Shown piece after piece: positions 1-14,488 of a stretch of 14,488 nt of DNA. The stretch lies in the IMG/VR virus record IMGVR_UViG_3300028883_000184; one strand, given 5' to 3'. The translations under genes and the position numbers were made by a program. Positions within the stretch are counted from its first letter, which is position 1. Every line of letters begins with the position of its first letter. The DNA comes from a virus. The notes beneath the pieces were generated by a model. It saw only the letters and a program-made list of their open reading frames with translations. It made no database searches and was not told the DNA's origin.

Positions 1-127
1 GAAGACATCCTTACAGAAGACATCCTTACAGAAGACATCCTTACAGAAGACATCCTTACAGAAGACATCCTTACAGAAGACATCCTTACAGAAGACATCC
101 TTACAGAAGACATCCTTACAGAAGACA
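1..127. repeat. Perfect 15-bp tandem repeat GAAGACATCCTTACA, 8 full copies plus a 7-nt partial copy. Iteron-like array and left copy of the terminal redundancy.
   Basis: Read directly. 1..120 is 8 exact units, and 121..127 (GAAGACA) then diverges into CGCGAGG. 1..121 is identical to 14368..14488. Confidence 0.95.
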
Positions 128-3039: not shown

Positions 3040-3107
3040 TTCCCAAAAAACACGATCTTTACGGCGTCGTTTATCCTAATTGTATAATTAATTCGTCTCT
3101 ATTATAA

Positions 3108-3129
3108 ATAGTTTATCACAAAAAGGACA
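3108..3129 (-). promoter_or_regulatory. 22-bp element ATAGTTTATCACAAAAAGGACA (copy 1), abutting a TATA-like box upstream of the scaffold/capsid genes
   Basis: Exact copy of 7310..7331. On the minus strand it reads TGTCCTTTTTGTGATAAACTAT, followed at once by TTATAAT. Lies 69-90 nt upstream of the scaffold ATG (3039). Confidence 0.6.
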
Positions 3130-3229: not shown

Positions 3230-3382
3230 ATGGCAAAACCACTGCGATTGGGCTATAAAATGACCTTAGAAGAGTCAAAAGCTTTCGCGGAAATTGACCG
3301 TGGGTATGTGGTTACTCAGCGGCAGAAAGATCTAGTCAGGAATGCCAAAAAATCCTGCAGCACGCACCCAATTAAATTTTAA
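3230..3382 (+). CDS. Unlisted 50-aa ORF, candidate antitoxin/partner of the GNAT toxin
   Basis: Translated by hand: MAKPLRLGYKMTLEESKAFAEIDRGYVVTQRQKDLVRNAKKSCSTHPIKF. GAGGTG lies 10 nt upstream of the ATG at 3230. Its TAA stop shares one base with the GNAT ATG (TAATG at 3380..3384). It is below the 60-aa cutoff of the supplied track. Confidence 0.6.
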   Translation: MAKPLRLGYKMTLEESKAFAEIDRGYVVTQRQKDLVRNAKKSCSTHPIKF

Positions 3383-3942
3383 TGGCATTCCCTATCAAAG
3401 ATTTAAAGATAGAAGCCCTTAGTGAGTCGCATGCTTCTGCGCTCAATAGTTTTACTTGTGGCACCTCCGCAGATTTAGATGATTTTATACAAAATGATGC
3501 TATATATGAGCAAGGACGACGATTAAATAGAACGTTCTTATTCTTTTATAAAAAAACACTTATTGGTTATGTCTCTTTAACCTCCGACCTTACAAACAAG
3601 GTGCGTTTCTATAAAGCCGATCTTGTGCAGAAAAAGGACAGTGATAGTCCTGTTTACACATCCTTCCCATGTGTTTTAATTGGAAGATTAGCAGTTAAAG
3701 ATGGTTATCATCGCAAGGGAATCGGAGAGTTCATAGTAACAAGAGCAATAGGAATTGTGTTGGAGAATGTTTCAAAATTTATCGGCGTTAGGTTTGTCAC
3801 AGTCGATCCAATAAACGAAGACGCGCGAAAATTCTATAAAAATAAATGCGGTTTTGTTGATATGATTGGTGTCAAAGTTGACGAGGAACCTGGTAGGATG
3901 TATATTAACCTGGAGAAAATCTGTGGAAATATGGGGCAGTAG
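3382..3942 (+). CDS. GNAT-family N-acetyltransferase, TacT/AtaT-like type II toxin candidate
   Basis: 186 aa. FTCGTSADLDDFIQNDA resembles the N-terminal F.CG...L..FL motif of TacT-like toxins. LIGRLAVKDGYHRKGIGEFIV is the acetyl-CoA motif A (R/Q-x-x-G-x-G). ARKFYKNKCGF is motif B with the conserved Tyr. Confidence 0.85.
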   Translation: MAFPIKDLKIEALSESHASALNSFTCGTSADLDDFIQNDAIYEQGRRLNRTFLFFYKKTLIGYVSLTSDLTNKVRFYKADLVQKKDSDSPVYTSFPCVLIGRLAVKDGYHRKGIGEFIVTRAIGIVLENVSKFIGVRFVTVDPINEDARKFYKNKCGFVDMIGVKVDEEPGRMYINLEKICGNMGQ

Positions 3943-5419: not shown

Positions 5420-6634
5420 TTACACCCTCCTTCGTTGTTGTGGGTTTTGAGGGGAGGAGCCGGAATTTTTGAAGATGCGATTAGCTATGTATCGTAACGT
5501 GTCGACCAAATCGTCGTTATCTTTGATCGGCTTGTCTTCGCCTCTCTCGGTGGCTTTTGGATCCCATCGGTAACCCTCCATCTCCTCGATGAGCATAGGA
5601 CAGGCAGGCCCAACAATGTAGAGGAGCCCTGTCTCAAAAGCGGTAGATGCGCGAGATATCCCATCTACGACGGCGTTATCGGCCTTCTTAACTCTTTGAA
5701 ATCCGTCTTTTTGGAGCTGGAGCCGGAACGATTTGGCCGATGGGTCAACGTCTATAGAGGACGGGAATTTGCCGTCTAGAAATGTTCTAAGATCTTTGGA
5801 CAGCTCGGAGTTTGTGAGGTCGGATTTGCGGTATTCTCCAGCGATGTACCACGCCCGTCCGATCCGATACGCTTTGAGGAAGCCTGTAGGGTGAGTGGCT
5901 CCCCAATCAACAGCTACCCGGATAGCTTCGACCCTACCATCTGGAAGCCTCGGTACGACGTGAACGGCCCGGTCGAAGTTACGATAAACGGCGCCTTCGG
6001 CGGCTACCCATTCGCCTAAGATGTACCGTTGATAGAATAGGCCCGTATACTGCCTTTTGAGTTCGGCCACGTAAACGGGATCTAGCCAAGGATTATCGGT
6101 TAGCTTGAAATGCCAGCTCTTTAGATCGAGCTCTTCTTCTCGATCCAACCAGCTTTTTTTGAGGTAATGTGAAGGGTTCCCGGGGTTGCTCGTTGCGAAC
6201 AATTGAGCGTCTTTCTCCGAGAGCCTCGAGATGAGCATGTCCCAAAAGCTCATAGGTACTAAGGATGCCTCGTCGACGTAAGCACCGCCTAAGGTTAGGC
6301 CTGCGATCTTCGAGTAGGCCGCTTCATCGTTAGCCCCTTCGACCATGATCTTACGGCCGTAAATTGAGACGGTCTTCAAGGATCGTTTGTAAACGTAGTT
6401 CTGAGAACCTACCAGCTTAGAGATAGGCAAAAGAACGTTCCTCTCGAGGCTGGTTTGGGTTTTGCCCACCATCAAAAGGTTGTATTCGCTCGGGGTTTTC
6501 AAAAGGTACTTCAACCATCGGACGTTTGCGCCTACTGTTTTAGCAGACCTTACCGCACCATGGCTTATGTTGACCCTCGCATCGGAGTTAAGGCAAAAGT
6601 CCCGCTGTTTGCCTACCGGAATTTGGAAGGTCAC
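5420..6634 (-). CDS. terL: Terminase large subunit (PBSX/XtmB, Terminase_3-like)
   Basis: 404 aa. Walker A HGAVRSAKT, Walker B GGAYVDEAS, coupling motif ATSNPG. Nuclease acidic residues in VAVDWG and DNDDLVDTLRY. GTG start preceded by GGAGGG, overlapping the TerS stop (GTGA). Confidence 0.92.
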   Translation of the reverse strand: MTFQIPVGKQRDFCLNSDARVNISHGAVRSAKTVGANVRWLKYLLKTPSEYNLLMVGKTQTSLERNVLLPISKLVGSQNYVYKRSLKTVSIYGRKIMVEGANDEAAYSKIAGLTLGGAYVDEASLVPMSFWDMLISRLSEKDAQLFATSNPGNPSHYLKKSWLDREEELDLKSWHFKLTDNPWLDPVYVAELKRQYTGLFYQRYILGEWVAAEGAVYRNFDRAVHVVPRLPDGRVEAIRVAVDWGATHPTGFLKAYRIGRAWYIAGEYRKSDLTNSELSKDLRTFLDGKFPSSIDVDPSAKSFRLQLQKDGFQRVKKADNAVVDGISRASTAFETGLLYIVGPACPMLIEEMEGYRWDPKATERGEDKPIKDNDDLVDTLRYIANRIFKNSGSSPQNPQQRRRV

Positions 6635-7041
6635 GTTCTACCCTCCATAGAATCGAAAAGCTTTGAGATTTCGCCGCCCTTGTCTCCGCCTAGATCTTCG
6701 TCTTCGAGGCGTCTCTTATCTATTCCTATAGCCACGCCTAAAAACCAGTCTTTCAAGTCTCGAGGGGTGTCGATTTCTGGCAACAGATGACGGGCTTTAT
6801 CCAAACCCTCTCCTACCAGCTTGATACGGGCTTCGCTTGCATAACAGGATTTGGCGATAGCTGCATTTTTCGTAACCGACCGGTCGCCTAAATCAAGTCC
6901 GTTTCGTCTCGCAACGTCTATAATCGTTGATTTAGCTCGGTTGAACTTCTTTGCAGCTTGGCGGGTGCTCATTCCAGCTTCGAGAGCTTCACATATGGCC
7001 GCTTCTTCTTCCTCGGAGACAGGCCCGCCTTTCGATGCCAT
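6631..7041 (-). CDS. terS: Terminase small subunit candidate (N-terminal HTH)
   Basis: 136 aa, immediately upstream of TerL and translationally coupled to it. HTH-like segment MSTRQAAKKFNRAKSTIIDVARRNG. Assignment rests on position and architecture. Confidence 0.7.
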   Translation of the reverse strand: MASKGGPVSEEEEAAICEALEAGMSTRQAAKKFNRAKSTIIDVARRNGLDLGDRSVTKNAAIAKSCYASEARIKLVGEGLDKARHLLPEIDTPRDLKDWFLGVAIGIDKRRLEDEDLGGDKGGEISKLFDSMEGRT

Positions 7042-7278: not shown

Positions 7279-7309
7279 ACAAAGTTTAGATTTCAATTAA
7301 GACATATAT

Positions 7310-7331
7310 ATAGTTTATCACAAAAAGGACA
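7310..7331 (-). promoter_or_regulatory. 22-bp element ATAGTTTATCACAAAAAGGACA (copy 2), abutting the TATA box of the packaging operon
   Basis: Exact copy of 3108..3129, in the same orientation relative to the downstream genes. On the minus strand it is followed directly by ATATATG. Confidence 0.6.
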
Positions 7332-7372: not shown

Positions 7373-7746
7373 TGATATTATATAGTCATTTTTATAGCTA
7401 CTACTTCGCGGCGCGAAGTGCGAAGTAGTCTGCGAGAGAGGAGAGATCTGAGGGAAAAAGAAGTTCTATGAAAATAAGGTTGATTTGTACTAAACTTTTT
7501 TTTCAGTAGTAGTATTACTACTGTAATACTACTACTACATAGTACTACCACTATCCTGCCTTACTATATTAGTATACTATATAAGTGTTACTATACAATA
7601 TTGTATAAATCTGTACATTAAGACTGTTACAAATTTTCTTGTAAATATGTCTAAAATCTAGGGGGTTTGAGAGAGCCCCTCTCCCCCAGAGAACTTCGCA
7701 CTTCGCGCCGCGAAGTAGTAGCTATAAAAATGACTAGATAATATCA
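7373..7746. repeat. 54-bp inverted repeat pair (7373..7426 and 7693..7746; one mismatch, inner 44 bp perfect) flanking a 266-bp AT-rich spacer
   Basis: The reverse complement of 7383..7426 (TAGTCATTTTTATAGCTACTACTTCGCGGCGCGAAGTGCGAAGT) equals 7693..7736 exactly. Nine further bases match beyond a single mismatch (7382/7737). The spacer holds overlapping palindromes of AGT/ACT triplets at 7504..7540. The right arm covers the last codons and stop of the 229-aa gene. Confidence 0.95.
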
Positions 7747-10159: not shown

Positions 10160-10186
10160 ATCTCCTATCAGTATTGTTCAAATTTT

Positions 10187-10269
10187 TGTACATTAATTAA
10201 TTTAATGTGCATAATTGGTGCACACTAAAAGTACATTAGATGTAAATCTAATGTAGATTCAATGTACAT
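10187..10269. promoter_or_regulatory. Divergent promoter/operator region with TGTACA-type palindromes
   Basis: TGTACATTAA (10187..10196) pairs with TTAATGTGCA (10202..10211) with 1 mismatch. TACATTAGA (10232..10240) pairs perfectly with TCTAATGTA (10247..10255). ATGTACAT palindrome at 10262..10269. TTATAAATA box at 10309..10317 lies ahead of the plus-strand gene. Confidence 0.5.
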
Positions 10270-10334
10270 ATATCTTTTCATTAATTGATTGTATATTGGA
10301 AAGGAAAAATTATAAATAGTATAAAACCATTCAC

Positions 10335-10625
10335 ATGGACATGACATCAAAACAAGAACTACGGTTCATAATAATAAAAAAATTAATACGTTTAAATAAG
10401 TGGGGGGGTTATCATACAGATATTACGAACTTAAAAAAAGGCACCCCTACCCACCTACAAGGCGATATAATCAAAGAAGCTAAAATAATGATTAAAGAAA
10501 CTCTATTAATCTCTAAACCCAGCACTGGTGAAATACATGTATCCCTTAATCCCACTATGAAAGCCGAGATTGACCAAATATACAAACAAGGTGCAGGACG
10601 ACGAAAAAAACATATAAGAAGTTAA
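10335..10625 (+). CDS. Small basic protein, possible wHTH, first gene of the AT-rich cassette
   Basis: 96-aa ORF. LLISKPSTGEIHVSLNP resembles a wing, and the tail is basic (GRRKKHIRS). The TATA-like box is about 25 nt upstream of the ATGs at 10335 and 10341. Function unknown. Confidence 0.6.
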   Translation: MDMTSKQELRFIIIKKLIRLNKWGGYHTDITNLKKGTPTHLQGDIIKEAKIMIKETLLISKPSTGEIHVSLNPTMKAEIDQIYKQGAGRRKKHIRS

Positions 10626-10652: not shown

Positions 10653-11495
10653 ATGATCAATAGAGACATTATCGATGTATTAAATTTTAGAGAGGATATA
10701 TCACCATTCCTCGTGCATTTAACTAAAGATGGGCCCATTGACGAATCACCAAACAAACAAACATCAAAAGAAGCTCTGGAGAAAATTATCGAAAACCAAG
10801 AACTTGTTTGCGCTAAATGCTTACTCACTAGACGGGACAAAAACGGAAATGAGATCGGAAAATATAACATGAGCGTTGCTCGTTTCGGTATGTATACTCG
10901 GAATATGGATGACGAAAAACAACGCCAATTATTTAGCGCAATCAGCTTTACAGAGACGCCACTAAACGAAATTCAATCCTTAATTGATATCAAGGGCCGT
11001 AATGTGGATCTCAGACAATATGGGCTTGTATTTCACAAGAACAAACTAGCAGATAAAGGTGTAGGTCCTGTTTTGTATTTAAACAATACCAATAAAAATA
11101 ACAAAGACGAGCTTATTTACAAACTTTGTAAAATTTTAATAACAGAGTGTGACGGGGAACATGAAGATGTGGCTAAAGAACTTTTTCCGATGATCTCAGT
11201 ATTTGGAAACCAAATCACGCCATATGGAAAGAATGGGACAAAACTAAAAAATTACGACTTCTTATGGGAGAGGGAGTGGCGTTATCCCTATGCAAAAGGA
11301 CATCTTAAGTTTGATCGTGACGACCTGTTTATTGGATTATGTCCAGATAATGAAATTGATAAGTTTGAGGAGTTAGCAAATACTTGTAAATTGAAAGATC
11401 TTAAATTTGTAGATCCTTACAGAAATCTGAAATATTACGCAAAAAAATTAATTACAGAGAGAAAGAATGCAGGTATAGAAGCTTCTGTAGTGTAA
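10653..11495 (+). CDS. AbiGi-like abortive-infection family protein (putative)
   Basis: 280 aa with an AGGA ribosome-binding site. The motif series FLVHLTK, ISFTETPL, YGLVFHKNKLADKGVGPVLYL and WEREWRYP matches my memory of the AbiGi family layout (H-x-T, F-T-E/D, YG-h-x-F, E-R-E-W-R). The region is visibly more AT-rich than the structural genes. Confidence 0.65.
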   Translation: MINRDIIDVLNFREDISPFLVHLTKDGPIDESPNKQTSKEALEKIIENQELVCAKCLLTRRDKNGNEIGKYNMSVARFGMYTRNMDDEKQRQLFSAISFTETPLNEIQSLIDIKGRNVDLRQYGLVFHKNKLADKGVGPVLYLNNTNKNNKDELIYKLCKILITECDGEHEDVAKELFPMISVFGNQITPYGKNGTKLKNYDFLWEREWRYPYAKGHLKFDRDDLFIGLCPDNEIDKFEELANTCKLKDLKFVDPYRNLKYYAKKLITERKNAGIEASVV

Positions 11496-12294: not shown

Positions 12295-12471
12295 ATGAAA
12301 GAATACACTACAATAGGAAAGATTTTTGGTGGCGGGAAAGTAACCGTTCCAAAAGCAATACGTGACGCTATGAGGCTAAGGGATGGTGATTTAGTCGAAA
12401 TCACGATTAGAATAGTAGAAGATGAGTCAGAAGGTAAACAGGGAAACGCTGAGCGCCCTGTCACCGCCTGA
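12295..12471 (+). CDS. Unlisted 58-aa AbrB/SpoVT-like (MazE-fold) DNA-binding protein
   Basis: Hand translation: MKEYTTIGKIFGGGKVTVPKAIRDAMRLRDGDLVEITIRIVEDESEGKQGNAERPVTA. G-x-VTVPKAIR-x(3)-L-x(2)-GD-x-V is the swapped-hairpin AbrB signature. TTTAAA box about 27 nt upstream of the ATG. The 65-aa minus-strand ORF at 12267..12464 is its antisense shadow. Confidence 0.75.
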   Translation: MKEYTTIGKIFGGGKVTVPKAIRDAMRLRDGDLVEITIRIVEDESEGKQGNAERPVTA

Positions 12472-12973: not shown

Positions 12974-13129
12974 AATTAATTCTCGATTATGTTTAAGTAC
13001 TGAAAACAAAAAGCGTGATTATTGCTCTTTGGGGTATGCTACTTACTTAGGGATATGGATATATATCAATCAATAGTATATATACTCATCATTATGTGGT
13101 TATCTCCGTTTCATTCTCGCAAAATAGTT

Positions 13130-13146
13130 TAGTTCACAGTGAACTA
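13130..13146. repeat. 17-nt palindrome TAGTTCACAGTGAACTA (copy 2)
   Basis: Same stem as copy 1, with a central A-to-G difference. Lies 31 nt past the stop of the RelE-like gene (13177, minus strand). Confidence 0.85.
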
Positions 13147-13176
13147 TTATTTGTCGACAACACTCTAAAATTTATT

Positions 13177-13488
13177 TTACTTGTTGTATTTCGCTACTAT
13201 GGAAGGTGCTTTTTTGTATACTTTATCGTGATGATCTACATATATAAATGTGATAATATTATCATCGAACGTGTATATAATAACATACGGGTCAACGTGC
13301 GAACCGCGAGCATGTTTAAGATCGTGGCGTTTTGGATCGCCAATTTGTGGATCCGATACTATCTGATCAATCTTTCCAAGTAGACGATCTTTTAAGGCCC
13401 TGTCCTTCTTAGTTAGCTTATTGAATTGCTTATCAAATTCGATGGTACTTCTATATTCATATCTCGCAGAATCTAATGGACGGGACAT
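13177..13488 (-). CDS. RelE/ParE-superfamily type II toxin
   Basis: 103 aa. IEFDKQFNKLTKKDRALKDRLLGKIDQIVSDPQIGDPKRHDL and the C-terminal PYVIIYTFDDNIITFIYVDHHDKVY match the RelE/ParE layout (F..-KL, then a Y-h-h-Y beta core ending H/R-x-x-x-Y). Confidence 0.8.
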   Translation of the reverse strand: MSRPLDSARYEYRSTIEFDKQFNKLTKKDRALKDRLLGKIDQIVSDPQIGDPKRHDLKHARGSHVDPYVIIYTFDDNIITFIYVDHHDKVYKKAPSIVAKYNK

Positions 13489-13508
13489 GTTATCAATAAG
13501 AGAATAGG

Positions 13509-13679
13509 TTATAGGTTGCGTAGATGATCCAAGAATTCTTTTTTGTTAGTGAAAGCTTTCACCTGGCCAGTTTTGTATTGTTCGATTCCACGCTTCAGCC
13601 CCTCCTCGAACTCCGTCACCCTTGCATCGCCTTTATCCACATAATTGGCCTTGACCGGGTGAACCTTTGCACTCGCCAT
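13509..13679 (-). CDS. Unlisted 56-aa ORF, candidate antitoxin of the RelE-like toxin
   Basis: Hand translation: MASAKVHPVKANYVDKGDARVTEFEEGLKRGIEQYKTGQVKAFTNKKEFLDHLRNL. GAGGT lies 8 nt upstream of the ATG at 13679. It ends 20 nt before the toxin ATG. The plus-strand 75-aa ORF at 13524..13751 is its antisense shadow. Confidence 0.6.
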   Translation of the reverse strand: MASAKVHPVKANYVDKGDARVTEFEEGLKRGIEQYKTGQVKAFTNKKEFLDHLRNL

Positions 13680-13761: not shown

Positions 13762-14265
13762 CTAACAACTTGTCGATCTATTCTCCATTAGGTCAAAGGT
13801 ATAACGCCGCGCCCTTTCCCCGTCCCGTCTTACGTTCTTAGCTTCGAGTCCCTCTGCTTTCATCAACCGTCCGAGTGGTCTACTTTCCATCCCAACAGCT
13901 TCTGCAATCACCGAAACGGGGGGTTCTATGCCTTTGCTGTGGAAGTCTTGGATCATTTTGATCGCCTTTTCGACGACGCTTTTGTCTGTCTTAGGTAAGG
14001 CCTTTCGTCGTGTCTTCTGTAAGGGTGTCTTCTGTAAGGATGTGTCTTTAGTTCTTACAGAAGACTTTTCTTTGTCTTCTGTAAGGCTTGCTGGAAGGTT
14101 TTTCCCGATGTACTTTTTCCTGGTTTTGCCACCTTCCCACCAGTAAGCATACCAATAAGGGCCATGGCCTGCGCCCGTTGCGCATTTCTTGCATCGCTCT
14201 TTTCCACAGAAGCTAAACTCCTTCTTGTATAGCCGCCCTGTCGCGGGATCTTTGAGCGAGTCCAT
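13762..14265 (-). CDS. Zinc-ribbon-like N-domain plus C-terminal wHTH protein, candidate iteron-binding initiator/regulator
   Basis: 167 aa. FCGKERCKKCATGAGHGPYWYAYWWEGGKTRKKYIGK is a CxxC...HGPYWY...K-YIG motif that I recall from an uncharacterised family (possibly DUF6788, to be confirmed). C-terminal VSVIAEAVGMESRPLGRLMKAEG ... RRDGERARRYTF is wHTH-like. The gene lies next to the iteron array and contains inverted iteron copies. Confidence 0.8.
   Translation of the reverse strand: MDSLKDPATGRLYKKEFSFCGKERCKKCATGAGHGPYWYAYWWEGGKTRKKYIGKNLPASLTEDKEKSSVRTKDTSLQKTPLQKTRRKALPKTDKSVVEKAIKMIQDFHSKGIEPPVSVIAEAVGMESRPLGRLMKAEGLEAKNVRRDGERARRYTFDLMENRSTSC
14012..14085. repeat. Iteron core copies inside the 167-aa coding sequence
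   Basis: GTCTTCTGTAAGG at 14012..14024 and 14027..14039 (15-nt spacing, inverted relative to the terminal array). CTTACAGAAGAC at 14054..14065 faces GTCTTCTGTAAG at 14074..14085, a perfect 12-bp inverted repeat with an 8-nt spacer. Confidence 0.9.
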
Positions 14266-14270
14266 AATTT

Positions 14271-14344
14271 GTCTTATGTAAGGAATGGTATATAGGATTT
14301 TCTTACATAAGACAAATTCCTTACATAAGATTCTTATGTAAGGA
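14271..14344 (-). promoter_or_regulatory. Promoter/operator of the 167-aa gene: variant iterons (CTTACATAAG) as inverted repeats around a TATA box
   Basis: GTCTTATGTAAG (14271..14282) and CTTACATAAGAC (14302..14313) are a perfect 12-bp inverted repeat bracketing TATATA (14289..14294). That box lies about 27 nt from the ATG at 14265. TCCTTACATAAGA-T-TCTTATGTAAGGA is a 27-bp palindrome at 14318..14344. Confidence 0.65.
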
Positions 14345-14361
14345 TTCGACGAGTTGCAAGT

Positions 14362-14488
14362 CTTACAGAAGACATCCTTACAGAAGACATCCTTACAGAA
14401 GACATCCTTACAGAAGACATCCTTACAGAAGACATCCTTACAGAAGACATCCTTACAGAAGACATCCTTACAGAAGACATCCTTACAG
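14362..14488. repeat. Perfect 15-bp tandem repeat GAAGACATCCTTACA: 6-nt partial plus 8 full copies plus 1 nt (right copy of the terminal redundancy)
   Basis: Read directly. 14368..14487 is 8 exact units in the same phase as 1..120. The window ends inside the array. Confidence 0.95.

Follow-up and report, generated by a model that had tools for sequence, protein, structure and literature searches.

A 12-bp motif clustered at and inside the gene of a DUF6788 protein in a small virus-like element, and its predicted role in self-binding and autoregulation

Which protein reads a short DNA motif that surrounds a single gene and recurs inside it, and what purpose could so many copies serve? The question is raised by IMGVR_UViG_3300028883_000184, a virus record of IMG/VR; the whole stretch of DNA that was analysed, 14,488 nt in length, is referred to here as the window. 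It holds the 12-bp motif CTTACNNAAGAC in 19 copies, all of which fall inside 522 bp of a 14,382-bp circle, with none elsewhere on the element. The copies lie upstream of, over the promoter of, and inside the gene of a 167-residue protein whose N-terminus carries a domain of unknown function, DUF6788. Here we describe the anatomy of this locus, its conservation and the linkage between motif and domain, and from these we infer binding, repression and a maintenance role. We consider it likely that the motif is the cognate site of the DUF6788 domain, and that its clustering would serve autorepression together with a cis-acting role in maintenance of the element.

A single motif clustered at one gene

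The window represents a complete circular element with ends that overlap by 106 nt (14383-14488 duplicate 1-106). Minus these 106 nt, it is identical to a circularised MEGAHIT contig, L001 (ERZ27252234 k141_697634), which has its own self-overlap of 141 nt. A sequence-only reading, made from the letters of the window without database searches, had described eight plus eight perfect copies of CTTACAGAAGAC at the window ends. Both sets are present (10-126 and 14362-14478), as is every other copy that it listed, but the two sets are one array seen twice, as follows from the 106-nt overlap. In L001, an independent and likewise circular contig that breaks at another place, the array lies mid-contig and measures 148 nt with 10 cores. 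Its 15-bp unit, CTTACAGAAGACATC, is repeated 8.5 times at the window end (14362-14488, plus strand, antisense to the gene) and continues at position 1 (1-127, plus strand), such that the true array joins 14362-14382 to 1-127 and comprises at least 10 cores. Because its 148 nt only just exceed the assembler's k of 141, the copy number is bounded from below.

At up to one mismatch, the core CTTACAGAAGAC and its variant CTTACATAAGAC match the window 22 times against 0.06 expected, a count that none of 200 shuffles equalled, and all 22 matches are confined to 14012-14488 or 1-126. The two forms, described previously as G and T variants, differ in their central dinucleotide only, and this dinucleotide varies freely within single genes of relatives.

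The 19 copies on the circle divide into 10 in the array, four in the promoter, where they bracket the TATA box, and five in the linker-coding part of the gene, which itself occupies 13762-14265 on the minus strand. Read in gene orientation, the locus opens with the GTCTTCTGTAAG array, at least ten 15-bp units located 97 bp upstream of the ATG. An 18-nt spacer, acttgcaactcgtcgaat in gene sense (14344-14361, minus strand), separates the last array unit from a head-to-head palindromic pair of truncated motif copies (14319-14343), written CCTTACATAAGA-t-TCTTATGTAAGG, or CCTTACATAAGA-a-TCTTATGTAAGG in gene orientation. There follow an antisense copy of CTTACATAAGAC (14302-14313, plus strand), 7 nt upstream of the TATA box in the position of a B recognition element (BRE); the TATA box as read from the sequence (TATATA, 14289-14294, minus strand), 23 nt upstream of the ATG; a sense copy of CTTACATAAGAC (14271-14282, minus strand) between TATA box and start codon, at -17; and then the gene. 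The inverted CTTACATAAGAC pair brackets the TATA box just as the sequence-only reading had it. From the distance between TATA box and ATG, with a putative transcription start, the gene is predicted to have a leaderless or near-leaderless mRNA.

A DUF6788 domain, a repeat-encoded linker and a winged helix

The AlphaFold2 (AF2) model divides the 167-residue protein into three parts, all encoded on the minus strand: a Cys3-His β-sheet domain that corresponds to DUF6788 (Pfam PF20586; residues 1-58, 14092-14265), a disordered linker (residues 59-93, 13987-14091) and a winged helix (residues 94-167, 13765-13986). The zinc-ribbon-like domain and the winged helix-turn-helix proposed from sequence are thus both recovered. 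Profile searching of the N-terminal domain, which had been suggested as a check, returned PF20586 at 25.4 bits (E = 1.6e-05, residues 15-64), marginally under the gathering cutoff of 27.2; the same family is matched by 19 of 19 aligned relatives (best E = 1.9e-07). The invariant signature of PF20586, C-x4-C-x2-C-x5-HGPYW, is present in the N-terminal 60 residues, where the conserved Cys20, Cys25, Cys28 and His34 accompany an HGPYW...GK..Y.G β-hairpin signature in a zinc-knuckle β-sheet. Across 44 archaeal and bacterial sequences, C20, K22, C25, H34, G35, P36, Y37, W38 and Y52 are invariant, and C28 is retained in at least 90%. Modeled alone, residues 1-64 reach a predicted local distance difference test (pLDDT) score of 90.6, and residues 64-93 of the linker have pLDDT values below 50. 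With the full AF2 model as query, Foldseek found only generic winged-helix matches (DtxR, MarR and AspA, E about 0.1-0.4), and searching PDB sequences with the family profile produced nothing beyond weak, generic helix-turn-helix (HTH) matches. As a guess, the N-terminal fold might be AP2-like or similar to an integrase arm-binding domain. A literature search for DUF6788 returned no paper mentioning the family, which has no assigned function.

Five motif copies lie within the gene, at 14074-14085 (minus), 14054-14065 (plus), 14027-14038 (minus), 14012-14023 (minus) and 13988-13999 (minus; a CT variant, CTTACCTAAGAC), where they encode LTED, SSVR, LQKT, LQKT and LPKT, respectively. The first four had been listed before; the fifth had been missed, and so had the fact that the disordered linker is built from these copies, read in several frames. 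They span residues 61-93, covering the disordered segment 64-93, in three contexts of frame and orientation. Over 14 distinct genes, the linker peptides LTxD, LxKT and SYVR all arise from one DNA motif, which is read in frame 0 for the first (43 copies), in frame 2 for the second (58 copies) and antisense for the third (9 copies). Because these peptides are the same motif in different frames and on different strands, selection appears to act on the DNA of the linker-coding region. A count of codon usage inside the motifs is partly circular, as the motifs are defined by their DNA; evidence free of this circularity comes from the first copy, which sits at an identical alignment position in all members, with L61, T62 and D64 conserved. 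In alignment A1, two relatives (P0022 and P0005) have near-identical C-terminal winged helices and N-domains of different clades, a comparison which suggests that recombination within the repeat-encoded linker shuffles the two domains.

Conservation of the layout among Methanotrichaceae elements

Full-length relatives of the 167-residue protein were found only in Methanotrichaceae-associated sequences, one of them a contig of Candidatus Methanocrinis natronophilus. About 30 related Methanotrichaceae elements keep the layout, including a capsid-less Prim-Pol plasmid, and the remainder of nearly all of them is motif-free. At 28 related loci, of up to 17 kb each, the motif occurs nowhere besides the locus of this gene. 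At these loci the TATA box is preceded by 1-8 antisense copies, which recur every 14, 15 or 17 bp, and the linker-coding region contains 6-12 copies; protein length ranges from 162 to 207 residues among them, and up to 253 among all aligned proteins. The sense copy, at -17 to -19, was detected by scanning in 27 of the 28, and direct reading of the 28th (L008) revealed the same layout; it also occurs in L043, L045, L055 and L056. A counterpart of the 14302-14313 copy is found at -44 to -50 in all relatives, and the TATA-like box is conserved. The earlier suggestion that inverted copies at the gene's own promoter would suit autorepression is strengthened by this layout, which recurs in every relative examined.

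The association holds in the wider database. Among 2.9 million IMG/VR contigs, each of the 11 with at least three tandem copies encodes this protein, as do 26 of 27 with the inverted operator pair, the exception being a chance match in a tail gene. A 12-copy matching array in L146 was rejected as an unrelated T-rich repeat in a bacterial cell-division cluster.

The same architecture is found on a ~15.6-kb Prim-Pol plasmid without capsid or terminase genes (L045, L046) and on an element with restriction-modification genes (L043). Overall, the module accompanies three replicase situations (a D5-like primase-helicase, Prim-Pol/MTBMA_p00010, or none) with no matching changes. Two extra motif pairs on plasmid L045 were considered as a possible regulon and rejected: one duplicates, in truncated form, the gene's own DUF6788 promoter and first ~10 codons, and the other lacks a TATA box. 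Plasmid L045 also has seven copies of a 31-nt palindrome, ATAGCTTGTGGCCCAGTGGTCCACAAGCTAT, with compensated variants, and these adjoin an isolated inverted pair of the DUF6788 motif; the palindromes and the truncated duplicate are found in the regions 13770-14360 and 3620-3700 of the plasmid. Separately, a non-coding block of ~95 nt, caccgcaacaattctattctcaccattttataagcacc...gtgggtgaaatcagcatc, is found just upstream of motif copies in several relatives (L002 7490-7565, L003 3020-3110, also L018, L026 and L056) and is absent from the window. It is near-identical between elements that are otherwise ~65-70% identical; candidate identities are a small RNA, a terminator-promoter unit or some other cis site.

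The motif accompanies the DUF6788 domain into bacteria

The bacterial homologues bear on which of the two domains reads the motif. At 77 loci from Ktedonobacteria/Chloroflexi, the encoded proteins share only residues ~13-65 with the 167-residue protein. The sequence TCTT[C/A]TGTAAG is found upstream of the gene, where it follows a TATAAT box at a distance of about 0-6 nt (mostly 4-6). Exact matches to the motif number 23 near the gene versus 8 in the remaining ~1.2 Mb; when one mismatch is allowed, the motif is found at 35 of the 77 loci versus 14 of 406 control windows, three of the matches being in the opposite orientation. In the bacterial chromosomal homologues, the promoter site is single. 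Among the archaeal proteins, P0039 of plasmid L045 has a diverged C-domain, and the motif is retained with the N-domain. Moreover, the central dinucleotide tracks the N-domain clade, such that proteins with GPYW[S/A] are found with CA or CG, and those with GPYWY with AT, AC, AG or CT. Because the motif accompanies this one domain across bacterial and archaeal promoter types, the N-terminal DUF6788 domain is very probably the reader of the motif.

In Ktedonobacteria/Chloroflexi genomes (L058-L134), bacterial DUF6788 genes run to hundreds, with 466 confirmed by tblastn in GTDB species representatives, and a genome often has several. These genes have in common a conserved promoter, ggTTATAAT-N(4-6)-TGTCTTCTGTAAGA, and some adjoin BTAD/SARP and STAND-type ATPase genes (L047).

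A model of self-binding, autorepression and maintenance

We propose that the N-terminal DUF6788 domain of the adjacent 167-residue protein recognizes CTTACNNAAGAC as its cognate DNA site. Protein bound beside the BRE/TATA box and between the TATA box and the start codon would block TBP, TFB or RNA polymerase, and so repress its own gene. Autoregulation by this protein is a well-supported prediction. That it would take the form of repression is suggested by the position of the sites, which abut the BRE/TATA box and occupy the interval between TATA box and start codon, and by analogy with archaeal repressors. The array, the palindrome and the five linker-coding copies would act as additional binding sites, and with 19 sites in 522 bp the protein could coat the 5′ region of its own gene as one large complex. 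Within this cluster, the 10-copy array would have grown recently, by slippage, from a single distal operator site. The complex may also have a cis-acting maintenance role, be it origin recognition, copy control or segregation. Such a role is suggested because no further site for the protein exists on the element, and because the module moves between capsid-encoding elements and plasmids; with no other site available, the bound cluster is probably itself the functional entity.

Several points weigh against this proposal. Its support is comparative sequence evidence throughout. The co-variation of protein and repeat, which the sequence-only reading had recommended looking for and which is indeed seen between N-domain clade and central dinucleotide, amounts essentially to one phylogenetic split. 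Conservation of the motif in bacteria could partly reflect shared ancestry of paralogous promoters. The same reading had held that relatives which retain the gene and lack the repeats would count against it; none is found among the full-length archaeal relatives examined, but distant phage DUF6788 loci (L033-L042) do not have the motif. The N-domain alone gave nothing significant in Foldseek (best E = 0.8), and thus matched no solved DNA-binding fold. The 10 array units are perfectly identical, as would be expected after recent neutral slippage, so the size of the array may be functionless. Finally, self-repression alone gives the protein no obvious purpose, which leaves the explanation incomplete.

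Gene content of the element

The element codes for a TerS-like HTH protein, TerL, a portal, a scaffold, an HK97-type capsid protein and a MuF-like head protein. The HTH gene (6631-7041), separate from that of the DUF6788 protein, overlaps the start of TerL, the canonical small-terminase position. No tail, integrase, helicase or primase was found among the open reading frames of the window in Pfam, PHROGs and NCBIfam searches, in keeping with the earlier remark that no helicase or primase is encoded. With head and packaging genes only, and without tail, integrase or replicase genes, the element could represent a satellite that forms capsids, or else a small HK97 virus without a tail. Relatives of ~13-16 kb from Methanotrichaceae (L002, L003, L008, L011, L026) instead carry a D5-like primase-helicase or a Prim-Pol/MTBMA_p00010-like replicase, and some relative contigs are roughly two-unit concatemers.

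Accessory genes comprise ParE and GNAT toxin modules (a ParE-family toxin at 13177-13679 and a GNAT acetyltransferase at 3230-3942), an AbiGi-family protein (10653-11495) and an AbrB/MazE-like protein (12295-12471). The ParE-family gene is preceded by a small gene and the acetyltransferase gene by one of 50 codons, the latter arrangement being toxin-antitoxin-like. So many accessory genes are suggestive of persistence in the manner of a plasmid.

Besides the motif, another conserved element, TATA(A/T)ATAGTTTATCACAAAAAGGACA, occurs at three window sites (3103-3129, 7305-7331 and 13122-13154), two of which immediately precede operons on the minus strand (scaffold/capsid and packaging genes); it resembles a shared late promoter, or an operator for a different regulator. 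A structured RNA or tRNA-linked att site was considered and rejected, as Rfam and tRNA scans of the window were empty. An exact search for the array of the window in IMG/VR and JGI metagenomes found no match; the window derives from an ENA assembly.

Alternative explanations for the clustered sites

The first alternative concerns the large array only. It may be functionless, a neutral and recent expansion of one operator copy by replication slippage whose apparent size is partly an assembly artefact; this is possible, though on balance we do not expect it. All array units are 100% identical. In close relatives (L008, L011, L028), the corresponding place is occupied by one distal copy, after which come the 18-nt spacer and the palindrome known from the window, so that the array is best read as one distal operator site that has expanded. 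Relatives differ in copy number, which ranges from 1 to 10, and the gene itself can also acquire tandem runs (ten copies in L149). The array is, moreover, only just longer than the assembler's k, and many contigs break in these repeats. Set against this, expanded arrays are found in other elements (eight copies in L016 and L017, six in L024 and L025, four in L007), and those of six and eight copies, at 102-112 nt shorter than the read length, are identical in independent samples (L016/L017 and L024/L025). Repeated expansions with different periods suggest that such arrays are at least tolerated and perhaps favoured; they could titrate the repressor.

The second alternative, which the sequence-only reading had put forward, is an iteron-type origin. 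The 167-residue protein would be the initiator, the array and/or the intragenic cluster the origin, the inverted repeats at the promoter would mediate autorepression, and the winged helix would recruit replication proteins of the host or of the element. The layout resembles that of iteron plasmids: tandem direct repeats adjoin the gene, inverted copies overlap its promoter, and the gene is transcribed away from the repeats. Sites inside the linker-coding region, the number of which alters linker length, mirror those of lambdoid phages. The only sites of the protein on the element are at its own gene, the window has no replicase gene, and the module is common to capsid-encoding elements and a Prim-Pol plasmid. 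However, searches of Pfam, PHROGs, NCBIfam and PDB sequences found no match between the protein and any initiator family (Rep_3/RepA-pi, Orc1/Cdc6 or phage O). The module occurs irrespective of replicase type, upstream copies number only 1-3 in most relatives, and the repeat period is not conserved. The single promoter site of the bacterial homologues fits a regulator rather than an origin. No AT-rich unwinding element lies within the gene beside the sites; a modestly AT-rich stretch occurs beyond the array, at about 150-230 (-330 to -270 in gene orientation).

The window also offers better-looking candidates. The most AT-rich non-coding regions are 7500-7650 (24-29% GC) and 10200-10400 (22-28% GC), the latter overlapping an AT-rich strand-switch gap at 10160-10334. 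The former lies inside an inverted repeat at 7373-7746 that is not part of the motif system, with 69-nt arms (7373-7441 and 7678-7746) that are 93% complementary, and a 236-nt centre in which GC falls to 24-29% among short TAC and TACTATA repeats. It sits in a 437-nt gap upstream of the packaging operon, and has no DNA homologue in relatives, which have a replicase gene at that position. We regard 7373-7746 as an origin-like or complex regulatory region. GC skew was not used for origin placement, as gene orientation dominates it in a 14-kb element. Taken together, the claim that the array is the origin is not established, and an initiator role for the protein is a minority possibility. It would nonetheless be compatible with self-binding and autoregulation, as an added function. 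A bolder version extends both ideas, with DUF6788 as a new sequence-specific DNA-binding class that recognizes a ~12-bp target, (G)TCTTNNGTAAG, from Chloroflexi to archaeal elements, and with the site cluster as a replication origin or copy-control locus; we would hold this combination to be speculative and unlikely as a whole.

The third alternative is a centromere-like or tethering site, in which the cluster assembles an autoregulating partition complex or tethers the episome to host structures. ParR on parC and omega on its heptad repeats form partition complexes that also autoregulate, and the omega/parS system of pSM19035 is of comparable design. Here, too, many short sites of mixed orientation are closely spaced upstream of and over the promoter of the gene for the putative binding protein, and the toxin-antitoxin modules suggest a persistent plasmid-like lifestyle. 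Yet no ParA-, ParM- or TubZ-type NTPase is found in any open reading frame of the window or beside the gene in relatives, no downstream partner gene is conserved, and the protein has neither a ribbon-helix-helix nor a ParB fold. A partition or tethering role is improbable on these grounds.

The last, a pac site recognized by the protein as a small-terminase-like factor, with packaging starting in the repeat cluster, had been offered before as an alternative to the origin and is very hard to sustain: the element does encode TerL, portal and capsid proteins, its recorded sequence starts and stops within the array, and in P22, SPP1 and P1 the pac site lies inside the gene of the recognizing protein, but the window termini are an assembly overlap and the independent circular contig breaks elsewhere, the small-terminase position is taken by the HTH gene at 6631-7041 and not by this gene, the same gene, promoter and linker occur on the capsid- and terminase-free plasmid and beside restriction-modification genes, and bacterial chromosomal homologues have the motif at their promoters.

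Implications

The preferred explanation, that the DUF6788 domain binds the motif and the protein autoregulates, would give a domain of unknown function a concrete predicted role in reading one 12-bp motif. This domain has hundreds of copies in Ktedonobacteria and further members in phages and archaeal mobile elements. The intragenic copies point to DNA-level selection that overrides protein sequence, the motif being kept in two frames and on the opposite strand while forming the protein's disordered linker. The locus is the one module common to a family of ~14-kb head-only virus-like elements and to plasmids of Methanothrix-group methanogens. The literature searched describes no genetic tools or replicons for these methanogens, and a search for Methanothrix viruses returned nothing relevant; should the cluster prove to be an origin or maintenance locus, it could provide a starting point for vectors. 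Were the bolder version correct, the locus would be an archaeal counterpart of the lambda origin within the O gene, functioning although the element encodes no replicase, and in these Methanotrichaceae viruses and plasmids the linker-coding sequence would have come to contain the protein's own binding sites, in three reading contexts.

Comparison with known systems

A close parallel is the lambdoid O gene with ori-lambda, where site number varies between relatives and changes protein length (PMC7466680). The same is seen here, and in both cases the sites of a two-domain DNA-binding protein (predicted in ours) lie mid-way in its own gene. In the present system, the segment encoded by the site-bearing region lies between the domains, is disordered and is poorly conserved. 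The 167-residue protein has no sequence or fold relation to O and no match to O-protein families. Its sites are 12 bp, non-palindromic, present in both orientations and read in several frames, and the flanking coding sequence, unlike that of the lambdoid origin, is not AT-rich. Further copies bracket the gene's own promoter, the host is archaeal, and the origin role is putative.

Iteron plasmids, among them P1 with its RepA and incC/incA, pPS10, R6K and pSC101, likewise combine direct repeats upstream of the gene with inverted copies over its promoter, which here would autorepress, and in both cases extra repeat arrays could titrate the protein. They differ in that the DUF6788 protein has no Rep_3/WH1-WH2 initiator homology, and in that repeat units are 14-17 bp here and ~22 bp, in phase, in iteron plasmids. 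Most family members here also have only 1-3 upstream copies, and no boxes resembling those of DnaA or the archaeal origin recognition box (ORB) were identified.

The omega heptads of pSM19035 and ParR-parC share with this locus one short motif iterated 7-10 times in mixed orientations at promoters, an autoregulatory arrangement, and the expectation of a large cooperative nucleoprotein complex. Unlike them, our system has no partner NTPase gene, pairs a zinc β-sheet with a wHTH in place of a ribbon-helix-helix, and extends its sites into coding sequence. Within the Pfam DUF6788 family itself, the archaeal proteins stand apart by the addition of a repeat-encoded linker and a winged helix, features unseen in bacterial and phage members.

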